From Escherichia phage teqdroes, in the sequence record NC_054932.1: a stretch of DNA of 64,000 nt, one strand, 5' to 3'. Made by a program: the position numbers and the translations under genes. The notes under the pieces are model-generated. The model had not been told where the DNA came from and ran no database searches. It worked only from the letters and a program-made list of their open reading frames with translations. The stretch's first letter is position 1; every line of letters begins with the position of its first letter. This document shows, one piece after another, positions 56,188-60,296 of the stretch.

Positions 56188-56775
56188 ATGGAAAATTCAT
56201 GCGCCATGGAATGGCCCAAATTTAGAGATAACAAAATGAGAACATTTTTAACTGGTCCTTATCTATCCCTGATGAATGCTTTTACACACCATTCTGATGC
56301 TAGAGTAGAAGAAATTTGTAAAAACGATTATATCCCACCATTTGAAGACTTACTCAAGCAGTATTGCACACTTCGATTAGATGGTGGCAGACAATCCGGT
56401 AAATCAACTGCTGTGACTAACTTTGCTGCTAATTGGCTGTATGATGGTGGAACAGTTATTGTTCTTTCTAATACTTCAGCTTACGCTAAAATTTCTGCAG
56501 GCCACATTAAAAAAGAATTTTCTCGTTATTCTGGCGATGATATTCGATTCCGCTTATTTACCGATTCTGTCCGTAGTTTTATCGGTAATAAAGGAAGCAA
56601 GTTCAGAGGTTTATCGCTTTCGCGGATTTTGTATATAATCGATGAGCCTGTTAAATCTCCTGATATGGATAAAATTTACGATATTCATATTGAAACTGTG
56701 CACCACTGTTGCAATAGTAAATGCTGCATTGGTGGTATTACTCGTCCACAGTTTTTCATAATCGGAATGCAATGA
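56188..56775 (+). CDS. hypothetical P-loop protein (vs.8 position)
   Basis: 195-aa ORF with Walker A-like GGRQSGKST. Confidence 0.5.
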   Translation: MENSCAMEWPKFRDNKMRTFLTGPYLSLMNAFTHHSDARVEEICKNDYIPPFEDLLKQYCTLRLDGGRQSGKSTAVTNFAANWLYDGGTVIVLSNTSAYAKISAGHIKKEFSRYSGDDIRFRLFTDSVRSFIGNKGSKFRGLSLSRILYIIDEPVKSPDMDKIYDIHIETVHHCCNSKCCIGGITRPQFFIIGMQ

Positions 56776-57101
56776 TGACAGACACACAGCTTTTCGAATA
56801 TCTTTATTTTTCGCCAAAAACTATTAAAAATAAATTGGTGAATCATTTTGAAATTTTGGCAAATAATAACGTCTTGAGCGAATTTTATCCTAAGCAATAC
56901 AAATTACAAAAAGGCGTATTCAAAGGATGCAGAGTTTTGTGCACTGCTCCTAATGCAAGATTAATGAATAAAATTCCATATTTTACCATGGAATTTATTG
57001 ATGGACCTTTTAAAGGACTAATCACCCAAAGTTTAATGGCATATGATTCTGAGCCATTTTTAATTAAAGAACAGTCTTGGATAAATTTATTTTCTAATTG
57101 A
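56772..57101 (+). CDS. hypothetical protein (vs.7 position)
   Basis: Start MMTDTQ overlaps the upstream stop; track ORF extends upstream. Confidence 0.45.
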   Translation: MMTDTQLFEYLYFSPKTIKNKLVNHFEILANNNVLSEFYPKQYKLQKGVFKGCRVLCTAPNARLMNKIPYFTMEFIDGPFKGLITQSLMAYDSEPFLIKEQSWINLFSN

Positions 57102-57107
57102 GGTTAT

Positions 57108-57470
57108 ATGAAAGCATATCAAATTCTTGAAGGCACACATAAAGGTACTATTTATTTTGAAGATGGTATTCAAGCACGAATTATTGTCTCCAAAACCTTT
57201 AAAGAGGACTCTTTTGTAGACCCAGAAATTTTCTACGGTTTGCATGCCCGTGAAATTAAAATTGAACCACAGCCTACAGTTAAAATCGAGGGTGGTCAAC
57301 ACCTGAACGTTAACGTTCTGCGTCGTGAAACTCTGGAAGATGCAGTTAAGCATCCGGAAAAATATCCGCAGCTGACCATCCGTGTATCCGGTTATGCAGT
57401 TCGCTTTAACTCTCTGACTCCGGAACAGCAGCGCGACGTTATTGCTCGTACCTTTACTGAGAGTTTGTAA
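57108..57470 (+). CDS. hypothetical protein (vs.6 position)
   Basis: 120-aa ORF. Confidence 0.5.
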
Positions 57471-57691
57471 TGGCAAAGATAATTATTGAAGGTTCTAAAG
57501 ATGTGCTAAATGCTTTCGCTGAGTGGTTTAGTAATTCAGGCGAACAGCAATTTAACGAAGCGTGGAATATGGGTGATATTGATGGAATTTATCCTACGAC
57601 AGAAATTTCTGTTCAGGGATATGGCATTCATGAACCTATTCGTTTAGTTGAATATGATTTATGTACTGGTGAGGAAGTCAAATATGATTGA
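57470..57691 (+). CDS. hypothetical protein (vs.5 position)
   Basis: 73-aa ORF. Confidence 0.5.
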   Translation: MAKIIIEGSKDVLNAFAEWFSNSGEQQFNEAWNMGDIDGIYPTTEISVQGYGIHEPIRLVEYDLCTGEEVKYD

Positions 57692-57950
57692 AGATATTAA
57701 GGGTTATAAGCCGCATACTGAAGAGAAAATCGGTAAAGTGAATGCTATCAAAGACGCTGAAGTTCGTTTAGGACTTATCTTTGACGCTTTATACGATGAA
57801 TTTTGGGAAGCATTTGATAGCTGTGAAGATGATGAACTCGCGAAGAATTATGCTGAAAGCCTCGATCAGTTAACTATTGCTAAAACGAAACTCAAAGAAG
57901 CCAGTATGTGGGCTTGTCGTGCAGTGTTCCAACCAGAGGAAAAATACTAA
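57684..57950 (+). CDS. small helical protein at the vs.4 position; candidate Acb2-type cyclic-oligonucleotide sponge
   Basis: ATG 57684 after GAGGAAG; about 88 aa; assignment by position only (fourth ORF upstream of regB). Confidence 0.4.
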
Positions 57951-58228
57951 TGGCTCAATTAAGTGCAGGGTTTGGTTATGAGTATTATACTGCACCTCGT
58001 CGTGTATCTGCCGCTCCTAAGAAAATTCAAAGTCTTGATGACTTCCAGGAAGTAGTCCGTAAAGCTTTTCAGGACTATGCACGTTATCTTAAAGAAGATT
58101 CACAGGACTGTCTCGAAGAAGATGAAATTGCTTACTATGAACAGCGTCTTGAACAGCTTAAAAACTTACATGAGGTTCGTGCAGAAGTTTCAAAGTCTAT
58201 GAATAAATTGATTAGATTTAAAGAATAA
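57950..58228 (+). CDS. hypothetical protein (vs.3 position)
   Basis: ATG overlaps the previous stop (TAATG); about 92 aa. Confidence 0.45.
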
Positions 58229-58230
58229 CT

Positions 58231-58260
58231 GTTTACTTTTCCTCTTGACTGTGGTATAAT
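58231..58260 (+). promoter_or_regulatory. early promoter (GTTTAC ... TGTGGTATAAT)
   Basis: Near-consensus extended -10. Confidence 0.6.
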
Positions 58261-58287
58261 TTTTCTATCAGTTAAGAGGAGAATAAC

Positions 58288-58749
58288 ATGACTATCAATA
58301 CAGAAGTTTTTATCCGTCGAAATAAGCTTCGTCGTCACTTTGAGTCGGAGTTTCGTCAAATTAACAATGAGATTCGTGAGGCATCAAAAGCAGCAGGGGT
58401 CTCATCGTTTCATCTAAAATATTCTCAGCATCTTCTTGATCGTGCAATTCAACGGGAGATTGATGAGACATATGTTTTTGAATTATTCCATAAAATAAAA
58501 GACCATGTTTTAGAAGTTAATGAATTCCTGAGTATGCCTCCGCGTCCTGACATTGACGAGGATTTTATTGATGGGGTTGAATATCGTCCTGGACGTTTAG
58601 AAATCACAGATGGAAATCTTTGGCTTGGATTTACAGTTTGTAAGCCTAATGAGAAGTTCAAAAACCCGTCACTTCAATGCAGGATGGCAATTATCAACAG
58701 TCGTCGTTTACCAGGAAAGGCTTCTAAAGCAGTAATTAAAACTCAATGA
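58288..58749 (+). CDS. regB: site-specific endoribonuclease RegB
   Basis: 153 aa, MTINTEVFIRRNKLRRHFESEF...; recognised as T4 RegB-like; synteny. Confidence 0.85.
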   Translation: MTINTEVFIRRNKLRRHFESEFRQINNEIREASKAAGVSSFHLKYSQHLLDRAIQREIDETYVFELFHKIKDHVLEVNEFLSMPPRPDIDEDFIDGVEYRPGRLEITDGNLWLGFTVCKPNEKFKNPSLQCRMAIINSRRLPGKASKAVIKTQ

Positions 58750-58756
58750 GGTAAGC

Positions 58757-59302
58757 ATGAGAAAAGCACTACTCGCTGGTCTATTGGCCATTTCAATGAT
58801 GGCACATAGCTCCGAGCATACTTTCAGTAATGTCCAACTCGATAACATGCGTTACGCGTATCAATTCGGGGAACAATTTTCTAAGGATGGAAAATATAAA
58901 ACATACAAAAATATCCACAAGAGCGGATTAGGTCATATAATGGCAGCCATTTTATGGCAAGAAAGCTCTGGCGGAGTTAATTTAAAATCTAAACCAAAGC
59001 ATCACGCCTACGGAATGTTCCAAAATTATTTGCCTACTATGCGAGCAAGAGTTAAGGAACTTGGTTATAATATGACCGATGCTGAAATAAAAAGAATGTT
59101 GAATAAACGATCCAATTCAGCTTCCTGGGCGTACATTGAGCTTTCTTATTGGTTAAATATACATAAGGGCGATATAAGAAAAGCAATATCCTCTTATAAT
59201 TCGGGATGGAATGTTAAAGCAGGTTCTAAATATGCTTCTGAAGTCCTAGAAAAGGCTAATTACCTTAAAAATAATAAACTTTTGGAAATAGTAAATGACT
59301 AA
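58757..59302 (+). CDS. predicted secreted/periplasmic protein (vs.1 position)
   Basis: 181-aa ORF with N-terminal signal-peptide-like MRKALLAGLLAISMMAHS. Confidence 0.5.
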   Translation: MRKALLAGLLAISMMAHSSEHTFSNVQLDNMRYAYQFGEQFSKDGKYKTYKNIHKSGLGHIMAAILWQESSGGVNLKSKPKHHAYGMFQNYLPTMRARVKELGYNMTDAEIKRMLNKRSNSASWAYIELSYWLNIHKGDIRKAISSYNSGWNVKAGSKYASEVLEKANYLKNNKLLEIVND

Positions 59303-59636
59303 AATTTTGGTTTTATGTATAGGATTAATTTCATTTTCTGCGTTAGCAGATACATCATATACTGAAATTAGAGAGTATGTAAACCGTACTGCAGCGGATT
59401 ATTGTGGGAAAAATAAAGCATGCCAAGCTGAATTTGCGCAGAAATTAATATATGCATATAAAGACGGAGAAAGAGATAAATCAAGCAGATACAAAAACGA
59501 TACATTGTTAAAACGATATGCTAAAAAGTGGAATACCTTAGAATGTTCAGTTGCGGAGGAGAAAGATAAAGCCGCTTGTCATTCAATGGTTGACCGTTTA
59601 GTAGATTCTTATAATCGAGGATTGAGTACTAGATGA
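59295..59636 (+). CDS. predicted secreted protein (vs position)
   Basis: 113-aa ORF with signal-peptide-like MTKILVLCIGLISFSALA. Confidence 0.45.
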   Translation: MTKILVLCIGLISFSALADTSYTEIREYVNRTAADYCGKNKACQAEFAQKLIYAYKDGERDKSSRYKNDTLLKRYAKKWNTLECSVAEEKDKAACHSMVDRLVDSYNRGLSTR

Positions 59637-60112
59637 TTGTAAAATATATCAAGGGCGATATTGTCGCCCTATTTCTTCAAGGTAATATTATTGCGCACGG
59701 GTGCAATTGTTTTCATACTATGGGTTCAGGTGTAGCGGGTCAATTAGCAAGAGCCTATCCCAAAATTTTAGAAATAGATAAAACTACTACCGAGTACGGT
59801 TCTCGTGATAAATTAGGCGATATGTCTATTGTTTTTAAACATAATCCTACAGGATTTGGTATATGCTATAACCTGTATACGCAATACGAACCGGGTCCTA
59901 ATCTTGATTATGGTGCTTTAGTAAACTGCATGATAGAATTAAATCTACAGGCAGAAACCCTTTTGTTTAAACCAGTAATTTACATTCCACGCATAGGTTG
60001 TGGTATTGCTGGCGGTGATTGGGATAAGGTTTCTAAATTAATCGACATGTTTACTCCTGATATTGATTTAATAGTGGTGGATTATGAAAGTACATTACCC
60101 GCATCCGTTTGA
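59633..60112 (+). CDS. macro-domain-like protein (possible ADP-ribose binding or hydrolase)
   Basis: 159-aa ORF; AHGCNCFHTMGSGVAGQLARAYP resembles the macro-domain N-x-x-N ... G-x-G-V-A-x-x-[IL] core. Confidence 0.45.
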   Translation: MIVKYIKGDIVALFLQGNIIAHGCNCFHTMGSGVAGQLARAYPKILEIDKTTTEYGSRDKLGDMSIVFKHNPTGFGICYNLYTQYEPGPNLDYGALVNCMIELNLQAETLLFKPVIYIPRIGCGIAGGDWDKVSKLIDMFTPDIDLIVVDYESTLPASV

Positions 60113-60296
60113 TCCTAAAAACAAAGCAGAAATTATTCGTCAATGGGAACGCATTTGCCGTACTAAATGCCCAATTAATAGTCCACATGATGTAGATAAA
60201 GACTATATTGGAACATTCGTTGAATATACCTTTATTGATAGGAAAGGTCGTAAACAACATGTAGAAGAATATTGCTTAAAGGTTACATGGTTATGA
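60084..60296 (+). CDS. hypothetical protein
   Basis: 70-aa ORF overlapping the previous ORF end. Confidence 0.4.
   Translation: MKVHYPHPFDPKNKAEIIRQWERICRTKCPINSPHDVDKDYIGTFVEYTFIDRKGRKQHVEEYCLKVTWL

Follow-up and report, generated by a model that had tools for sequence, protein, structure and literature searches.

The window analysed here is a stretch of 64,000 nucleotides (nt) of Escherichia phage teqdroes (sequence record NC_054932.1), part of a Tequatrovirus (T4-like) genome, and the subject of this report is a pair of consecutive open reading frames (ORFs) within it that encode products of 181 and 113 amino acids (aa). A first-pass annotation of the window had described two such ORFs with signal-peptide-like N-termini downstream of regB, and this description proved exact. 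Judged by identity and position, the two ORFs are the orthologues of the T4 early genes vs.1 and vs; these genes were already known and no new element is present. We consider it probable that their products, Vs.1 and Vs, form a co-exported envelope module in which a periplasmic lytic transglycosylase is accompanied by a probably disulfide-bonded partner.

The vs.1 product is 99.4% identical over 181 aa to T4 ORF 61.4 (X04567; UniProt P13311), which lies at the same place between regB and vs, and the window copy is in all of substance the same as T4 Vs.1 (T4p112). Vs is 100% identical to many Tequatrovirus Vs proteins, 97.4% identical to the T2/T6 form and approximately 97% identical to the T4 form. 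Compared with T4 Vs (P13310) it has the same position and the same overlaps with both neighbours, and it is shorter (113 aa versus 115 aa in T4-type Vs) because two residues are deleted from the c-region of its predicted signal peptide. In NCBIfam there is no family for Vs.1 or for Vs. The region 58200-60200 is 99.0% identical to Escherichia phage PE37, and 569 phage records cover at least 80% of it. Tequatrovirus genomes that are 99% identical in DNA sequence share the gene order of the window at this place, in which vs.1 and vs follow regB and precede tk.4, then three or four small tk.x ORFs, and finally tk, rI.1 and rI. The overlap of vs.1 and vs is consistent with translational coupling of the two genes, as read from the ORF coordinates (Table 1).

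Table 1. Features of the vs.1-vs locus and of its immediate neighbours, in window coordinates.
Feature	Position	Strand	Basis and remarks
vs.1 (T4 ORF 61.4 / T4p112), 181 aa, predicted periplasmic SLT/GH23 lytic transglycosylase precursor	58757..59302	+	intact ORF
Vs.1 predicted Sec signal peptide, residues 1-18, MRKALLAGLLAISMMAHS, cut between AHS and SE, continues SEHT	58757..58810	+	heuristic; low pLDDT 1-20
Vs.1 E69-S70, predicted catalytic Glu-Ser motif, C-terminal end of helix 59-70	58961..58966	+	E69 invariant, S70 at least 90% (35 homologues)
Vs.1 G86-M-F-Q89, second SLT motif (GLMQ-like)	59012..59023	+	G86, F88, Q89 invariant (35 homologues)
Vs.1 Y147-N-S-G150, third SLT motif (AYNxG-like)	59195..59206	+	Y147, N148, G150 invariant (35 homologues)
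vs.1 stop / vs start overlap, 8 nt, ATGACTAA	59295..59302	+	ORF coordinates
vs (T4 ORF 60.9 / T4p111, UniProt VS_BPT4), 113 aa precursor, small four-helix protein, four mature Cys	59295..59636	+	intact ORF
Vs predicted Sec signal peptide, residues 1-18, MTKILVLCIGLISFSALA, cut between ALA and DT, continues DTSY	59295..59348	+	heuristic; pLDDT <50 at 1-3, 10-18
Vs C37-GKNKA-C43, Cys pair at helix 1/helix 2 turn, predicted first disulfide loop	59403..59423	+	spacing 5-7 residues family-wide
Vs C84...C95, Cys pair at helix 3/helix 4 turn, predicted second disulfide	59544..59579	+	spacing 9-11 residues family-wide
sigma-70/T4 early promoter-like site	58232..58260	+	TTTACT, 17 nt spacer, TG-TATAAT; 10/12 matches, TG extension; 5' of regB
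regB, site-specific endoribonuclease, upstream neighbour	58288..58749	+	Pfam PF10715 (REGB_T4) E 5.9e-69; phrog_1323 E 3.4e-78
tk.4 / adfM, macrodomain protein, downstream neighbour	59633..60112	+	Pfam Macro E 5.8e-08; start overlaps vs stop by 4 nt (ATGA)

Domain, fold and conserved residues of Vs.1 and Vs

The SLT profile of Pfam (PF01464) matched residues 61-154 of Vs.1 (E 2.1e-05) with a score of 24.5 bits, which exceeds the curated cutoff of 21.3, and several of its homologues bear a precomputed PF01464 label. Among the PHROG families Vs.1 matched phrog_600 (E 2.7e-68), and the profiles that matched its SLT region include endolysin and lytic tail protein families. Conservation was assessed in an alignment of 35 homologues reaching down to 40% identity, in which the residues of all three SLT motifs are retained as listed in Table 1; the second and third motifs are also present in nearly all relatives in IMG/VR. 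Since no invariant Asp was found at any position of this alignment, Vs.1 is more in keeping with a single-Glu transglycosylase than with a goose-type lysozyme. The AlphaFold model of Vs.1 has a mean predicted local distance difference test score (pLDDT) of 88.6 and a predicted template modelling (TM) score of 0.83, with low pLDDT at residues 1-20. When this model was searched against the PDB with Foldseek, ranks 1-20 were all MltD, Slt, LtgA, GH23 chitinase or goose-type lysozyme (probability 0.75-1.0, E from 5.5e-3, TM 0.39-0.54, identity 13-19%).

A score above the Pfam threshold, a predicted catalytic Glu-Ser without a second Asp, the second and third motifs and, in the model, a lysozyme-like alpha-helical fold, which together mark family 1 of the SLT/GH23 enzymes, were all found in Vs.1. 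The suggestion of the first-pass annotation that the 181-aa protein be compared with lytic transglycosylase and lysozyme-like folds is thereby borne out, and the prediction that Vs.1 is a divergent yet recognisable member of SLT/GH23 is well supported by sequence. With Slt70, MltD and MltE/EmtA it shares the fold, a lone catalytic Glu with Ser as the next residue, and both further motifs (GLMQ-like and AYNxG-like), although its identity to bacterial lytic transglycosylases is only 13-19%. The SLT similarity of T4 Vs.1 had been noted before, as marginal, in 2003-2006 (PMC1524935), and within the searchable literature no test of T4 Vs.1 function was found. Relatives of Vs.1 occur in 2044 phage records, from Straboviridae of many hosts and also from Kuttervirus and Felixounavirus.

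Two peculiarities of the protein cluster (90% identity) that is represented by the 181-aa Vs.1 may be mentioned. The cluster also holds 113-aa Vs proteins, which presumably were drawn in artificially because the two genes overlap, and some of its members are labelled as proteins of Bacillus, Enterococcus, Shigella or E. coli, which is likely to reflect phage contamination of assemblies.

Vs matched phrog_1256 ("valyl tRNA synthetase modifier") over its full length with E 5.2e-40, and its relatives all carry the precomputed Pfam label PF26829, which places the window protein in the Vs family. This family is small and confined to phages, with 6 clusters at 90% identity. HMMER scans of 1.8 billion representative sequences returned 8 matches with a profile of T4-type Vs and 18 with a broad profile built from 21 sequences, the latter all PF26829. 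Those with a named source were phage Vs proteins, the one exception being a JGI entry of 99 aa that bears the label 'sensor histidine kinase YesM', and from neither scan did a bacterial or other non-phage relative with informative context emerge. The AlphaFold model of Vs (pLDDT 79) consists of four helices (residues 20-37, 41-60, 69-84 and 89-111) behind 19 disordered N-terminal residues of low confidence. No significant match to this model was obtained in the PDB by Foldseek (best E 1.6), in the viral structure library BFVD the matches were Vs proteins only, and a Pfam search with nine members of the family gave no match at E up to 10.

The remark of the first-pass annotation that the second ORF contains Cys also holds. 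Five Cys are encoded; four of them (C37, C43, C84 and C95) belong to the mature protein and the remaining one to the signal segment. When 21 diverse members of the family, reaching as low as 19% identity, were aligned, C37, C43, G58, C95 and G109 proved invariant, and an equivalent of C84, shifted in the alignment, is present in every full-length member. Because the spacing between the Cys of each pair varies in the family, two disulfide-closed loops are preferred over a metal site as the probable arrangement of the four residues.

Assignments of Vs to known families were also considered and rejected. Membership in a known lysozyme or transglycosylase inhibitor family (Ivy, MliC/PliC, PliG, LprI or Spackle) or in a solved fold was dismissed on the negative Foldseek, BFVD and Pfam results. 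A kinship with RI amounted to a BLASTP alignment of 5 residues with E 0.52, and a weak match to DUF1311 (E about 7) was regarded as noise.

Predicted export signals and their conservation

Signal peptides were sought by a heuristic that requires a basic n-region, then 7-15 hydrophobic residues as the h-region, and a small residue at each of positions -3 and -1. Only 3 of the 125 ORFs of the window (ATG start, at least 60 aa, both strands) passed, namely Vs.1, Vs and RI. RI is encoded approximately 2 kb downstream of vs. It belongs by PHROG match to the lysis-inhibition family, and the T4 annotation calls it a membrane regulator of lysis inhibition; its functional domain is periplasmic. The N-termini of Vs.1 and Vs start basic (MRK and MTK, respectively) and reach 9-residue Kyte-Doolittle maxima of 2.74 and 3.47 from residue 4, and a hydropathy scan revealed no second hydrophobic segment in either protein. 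Removal of the predicted signal peptides would turn the 20.7 kDa precursor of Vs.1 into a mature protein of 163 aa (about 18.8 kDa) with an isoelectric point of about 9.6, and the 12.9 kDa precursor of Vs into one of 11.0 kDa (95 aa).

These features are not peculiar to the window copies. A signal-like N-terminus was found in all unique Vs.1 relatives sampled, two start-codon artefacts set aside, and a hydrophobic N-terminus, not conserved in sequence, in every full-length member of the Vs family. In the CC31-like Karamvirus form of Vs, known from 33 records of Enterobacter and Cronobacter phages, the N-terminus reads MKKLFVLLVVFALSG before the predicted cut and CK after it, with the lipobox LSG followed by C, and the four mature Cys are kept. 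Such a swap in the type of export signal only makes sense if Vs is exported. In Acinetobacter phage ZZ1 the deposited coding sequence of Vs (98 aa, start at L007 2537) omits the signal peptide; the complete ORF (L007 2504-2833, 109 aa), whose ATG overlaps the stop of vs.1, encodes MKLINIIAVFCMIISMPVYA before a cut followed by QN. Full-length His-tagged Vs was insoluble in the cytoplasm of E. coli (PMC8076793), an observation that is compatible with export and not specific for it.

The first-pass annotation had remarked that both proteins look exported. The heuristic and the comparative evidence taken together, including the lipobox variants of Vs, make a stronger case than this impression from a single sequence, and the predicted export of Vs.1 and Vs is considered well supported by sequence.

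Gene pairing, fitness effects and neighbourhood

The genomic surroundings of vs.1 were examined in 55 IMG/VR loci with Vs.1 relatives, 51 of them T4-like and 4 distant and non-T4-like. An ORF of the Vs family, recognised by a hidden Markov model, lies immediately 3' of vs.1 in every one of the T4-like loci (51/51), at a gap of -8 to +3 nt. A hydrophobic N-terminus together with exactly four Cys after residue 25 characterises 49 of these downstream ORFs, and the two exceptions are a truncated and a split copy. The pairing is also found in Marfavirus, Gaprivervirus, Jiaodavirus and phage ZZ1, in the last of which regB is replaced. Vs is absent from Aeromonas phage 25, in which an in-frame stop inside the signal peptide interrupts vs.1.

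The vs.1 of Aeromonas phage 25 (L008 1911-2600) is unusual in further respects. Its annotated start is too late, the upstream frame reading MRGIG, then the stop, then FSWIVFATHVYA before a predicted cut followed by GPG, and its C-terminus is abnormally extended, so that a pseudogene or a sequencing error is possible. In Klebsiella Jiaodavirus (L006 3363-3755) and in ZZ1 (L007 2830-3261) a third exported-looking protein of 130-143 aa is encoded 3' of vs. These two proteins, which start with MKKAAILLCCAFSVNA before WEKL in Jiaodavirus and with MKIKAVLLSLLFLVSPGVFA before WEQL in ZZ1, are clearly related to one another, and the mature part of each has two Cys. No counterpart of this protein was found in the window. 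The vs locus appears to collect exported proteins.

In T4 both vs and vs.1 belong to the early RNA class, and both proteins were detected in infection (PMC9697503 supplement). Their effects on fitness can be read from transposon libraries published in the HIDEN-SEQ preprint (10.1101/2025.11.20.689424), in which both genes are non-essential on plates, with a saturation of TA sites of 0.94 for vs and 0.88 for vs.1. In liquid lysogeny broth (LB) on E. coli K-12 the mean reads per TA site of T4 were 26.6 in vs and 22.6 in vs.1, compared to 178.6 in regB, 289.6 in tk.4, 652 in vs.3 and 265 in vs.4 (HIDEN-SEQ supplement). The depletion of vs and vs.1 was repeated in two further T4 controls, and in the independent phage Bas37 the corresponding reads were 23.5 for vs and 73.8 for vs.1 versus 324 for regB and 326 for tk.4 (HIDEN-SEQ supplement). 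Measured against the genes on either side, vs and vs.1 were depleted of insertions by a factor of 4 to 14 in the published libraries of T4 and Bas37.

Further comparisons concern the medium and the host strain. In M9 glucose no T4 gene scored more strongly than vs, a result that a knockout confirmed (HIDEN-SEQ, 10.1101/2025.11.20.689424), and the change from LB to M9 glucose gave a log2 fold change (log2FC) of -2.19 (q 0) for vs and of -0.87 (p 0.0055, q 0.155) for vs.1 (HIDEN-SEQ Data S8). On the wild E. coli strain CFE299 the value was significant for vs.1 (log2FC -1.20, q 0.015) and not significant for vs (-1.04) (HIDEN-SEQ supplement). A fitness cost that is common to vs and vs.1 and absent from their flanks fits a common pathway, though it is suggestive only. 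In the same comparison of LB with M9, insertions in nrdA, nrdB and td were more tolerated in M9, and those in regB rose (log2FC 1.17, p 0.049; HIDEN-SEQ Data S8).

A simple antidote model, in which Vs merely neutralises a harmful Vs.1, is disfavoured by these data in that insertions in vs.1 are depleted and not neutral, with the reservation that polarity on vs could mask such a relation.

Upstream of the pair, the promoter-like site before regB is the likely source of an early transcript spanning regB, vs.1 and vs; sites of this type are no more numerous in the region than shuffled sequences would lead one to expect. The T4 arrangement ipIII-ipII-denV-vs.8 between the endolysin side and regB (T4 58500-66500, L002) appears to be lacking at the corresponding place of the window (56188-58228, + strand), as judged from the close relative G157lw. 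Before vs.7, vs.6, vs.5, vs.4 and vs.3 the window carries a 195-aa P-loop-like ORF (GGRQSGKST) that matches phrog_1488 and also gave a weak terminase-ATPase-like match. Downstream, T4 tk.4 is reported in a 2025 preprint to be AdfM, an anti-DarTG2 factor (bioRxiv 10.1101/2025.11.20.689424), and many phage records still name it 'phosphatase'. The first codons of tk.4 contain a hairpin at 59652-59670 (+ strand), a perfect 8-bp G+C-rich stem of AGGGCGAT att GTCGCCCT followed by a T-rich run. It has a terminator-like score on both strands, and the 101 nt around it fold no better than shuffles (z -1.62).

Possible roles of the pair

The reading that we favour, a co-exported module of Vs.1 and Vs, can be put as a sequence of predicted steps. 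Both genes would be expressed from an early transcript that also carries regB and would be translationally coupled, and both products would be exported via Sec, each losing an 18-residue signal peptide. Mature Vs.1 would then be a soluble periplasmic transglycosylase of family 1 (SLT/GH23), in which Glu69 cleaves the bond between N-acetylmuramic acid and N-acetylglucosamine of peptidoglycan, and mature Vs, of approximately 11 kDa, a four-helix protein held by two disulfides that would form once it has reached the periplasm. We infer a partnership between the two from their synteny and coupling, from their co-loss and from the phenotype that they share. Vs quite possibly, though this part is held tentatively, binds Vs.1 in the envelope and thereby directs it to its target, activates it or holds it in check. 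The pair would act as a single conserved module that raises phage fitness, most visibly in poor medium. Candidates for its purpose are local wall remodelling in the early and middle period of infection, or control of wall turnover in a slow-growing host.

Comparison with known systems offers some guidance. VirB1, IpgF, EtgA and P19 are small, signal-peptide-bearing transglycosylases specialised for secretion systems, and Vs.1 resembles them in that its predicted signal peptide is followed by just one domain, of about 160 aa. Unlike these specialised enzymes, Vs.1 is the product of an early gene of a lytic phage with a dedicated small partner gene, and it is not known to be needed by any envelope-spanning machine. 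The periplasmic T4 proteins RI (an antiholin) and Spackle, and the lysozyme or transglycosylase inhibitors Ivy, MliC/PliC and LprI, are analogous in being small exported proteins, as Vs is predicted to be. Ivy presents a short disulfide-closed loop, to which the conserved C-x5-7-C loop of Vs may be likened; this likeness is a lead on the mode of action and not a family assignment.

Several observations weigh against the favoured reading. The export and cleavage of both proteins, the disulfides of Vs and the partnership of the two are predictions. The transposon phenotype of vs.1 may be polar on vs via translational coupling. The Foldseek statistics of Vs.1 are modest (E ~5e-3, TM about 0.45-0.54), and a sequence profile search of the PDB with Vs.1 returned only goose-type lysozyme at E 0.46, which is too weak alone. 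The 4 distant non-T4-like IMG/VR relatives of Vs.1 and the enzymes of Kuttervirus and Felixounavirus have no adjacent Vs, from which it follows that Vs is not required by every Vs.1-type enzyme. Finally, classical work cited in PMC8076793 describes a small T4 factor that binds the valyl-tRNA synthetase (ValRS) of the cytoplasm.

The last of these points is at the root of the strongest alternative. An exported Vs should not meet ValRS since that enzyme is cytoplasmic. Vs may instead be a cytoplasmic ValRS-binding modifier as its main function, with an N-terminus that does not serve export or a protein that is partly retained inside; the four Cys might then bind metal, and the adjacency to vs.1 would be an inherited gene order devoid of functional meaning. 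We judge this to be rather unlikely. The classical biochemical and genetic literature on the modification of ValRS, summarised in PMC8076793 and in the HIDEN-SEQ preprint (10.1101/2025.11.20.689424), speaks for it, as do the database annotations, all of which follow this label, and the impaired growth of the vs knockout in minimal medium, where the supply of aminoacyl-tRNA could matter. A newer literature on Vs and ValRS was not found.

Several observations speak against such a role. The signal-like N-terminus is present in every full-length Vs and yet free to vary in sequence, and one lineage has swapped it for a lipoprotein signal. Only Cys and Gly residues are invariant, whereas a protein that binds a highly conserved enzyme would be expected to show a conserved surface, and none is seen. 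The Cys spacings of 5-7 and 9-11 residues are unlike those of typical zinc knuckles, and vs is strictly tied to the gene of an enzyme that is itself predicted to be exported. Moreover, in the literature consulted the basis for equating ORF 60.9 with the genetic locus vs was not found, and in the T4 sequence record of 1986 this ORF carries no name. The classical factor measures about 10 kDa and its effect reportedly was seen in vivo, which calls for a cytoplasmic protein; its mass is close to the 11.0 kDa computed for mature Vs, and this closeness may be counted in favour of the classical role. A mass near 11 kDa is, however, that of the processed form, whose processing would imply export.

Possible ways out of the conflict are that a fraction of Vs stays inside, that the protein has a dual role, or that the assignment of the ORF is wrong. 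One may go further and speculate that the vs product is not, or not only, a ValRS modifier, and is an exported, disulfide-bonded and sometimes lipid-anchored partner of Vs.1 in a previously unrecognised envelope-remodelling module that matters most under nutrient-poor conditions, the classical factor being either a minor unexported form of Vs or encoded elsewhere in the region by another small ORF. In this full form the proposal is put forward as doubtful, albeit worth stating.

The first-pass annotation had pointed to roles in excluding superinfecting phages or in countering envelope-based defences. On such a reading the pair would constitute a periplasmic device comparable to T4 Spackle or Imm, with Vs for instance blocking an incoming tail lysozyme, or with the two together disarming an envelope-based defence of the host. 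The early expression and the predicted periplasmic location would suit such a function, the region is rich in host-interaction genes (tk.4/adfM, rI), and insertions in vs.1 are significantly depleted on CFE299, as given above. Nevertheless, neither gene is a defence-specific hit in the comparisons of LB with M9 and of K-12 with CFE299 or in the two further controls, and the fitness cost is already evident on plain E. coli K-12 in broth, in libraries of a single phage. The Vs model has no similarity to any solved structure, lysozyme and transglycosylase inhibitors included, Vs has no Pfam match and no RI similarity, and a wall-cutting enzyme is not an obvious exclusion factor. This part of the first-pass annotation gained no support, and a role in exclusion or counter-defence is considered improbable.

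Least probable of all is that Vs.1 serves as an auxiliary lysis enzyme aiding the endolysin late in infection, with Vs unrelated to it: the SLT domain, the endolysin and lytic tail protein families among the PHROG matches of this region and an earlier proposal of 'some role in cell lysis' (PMC1524935) point that way, but vs.1 lies in an early transcription unit with early and not late RNA, its own predicted cleavable signal would let the enzyme reach the wall well ahead of lysis, by many minutes, an endolysin (e) and a holin (t) are already encoded in the genome, of which t tolerates no insertions whereas vs.1 is non-essential, and the fixed partner gene would be left unexplained.

For more than 50 years Vs has gone without an explanation of its biological role. 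The main point of interest in the present analysis is the mismatch between the label of vs on the one hand and the features of an exported protein and the strict gene pairing on the other, which challenges a long-standing annotation. If Vs is the periplasmic partner of a wall-cutting enzyme, the phenotype in minimal medium needs a different explanation. If the co-exported module of Vs.1 and Vs is real, the "translation" label that has been copied into hundreds of phage annotations would be misleading, and T4-like phages would own a conserved, early-acting pair of proteins for remodelling the cell wall.

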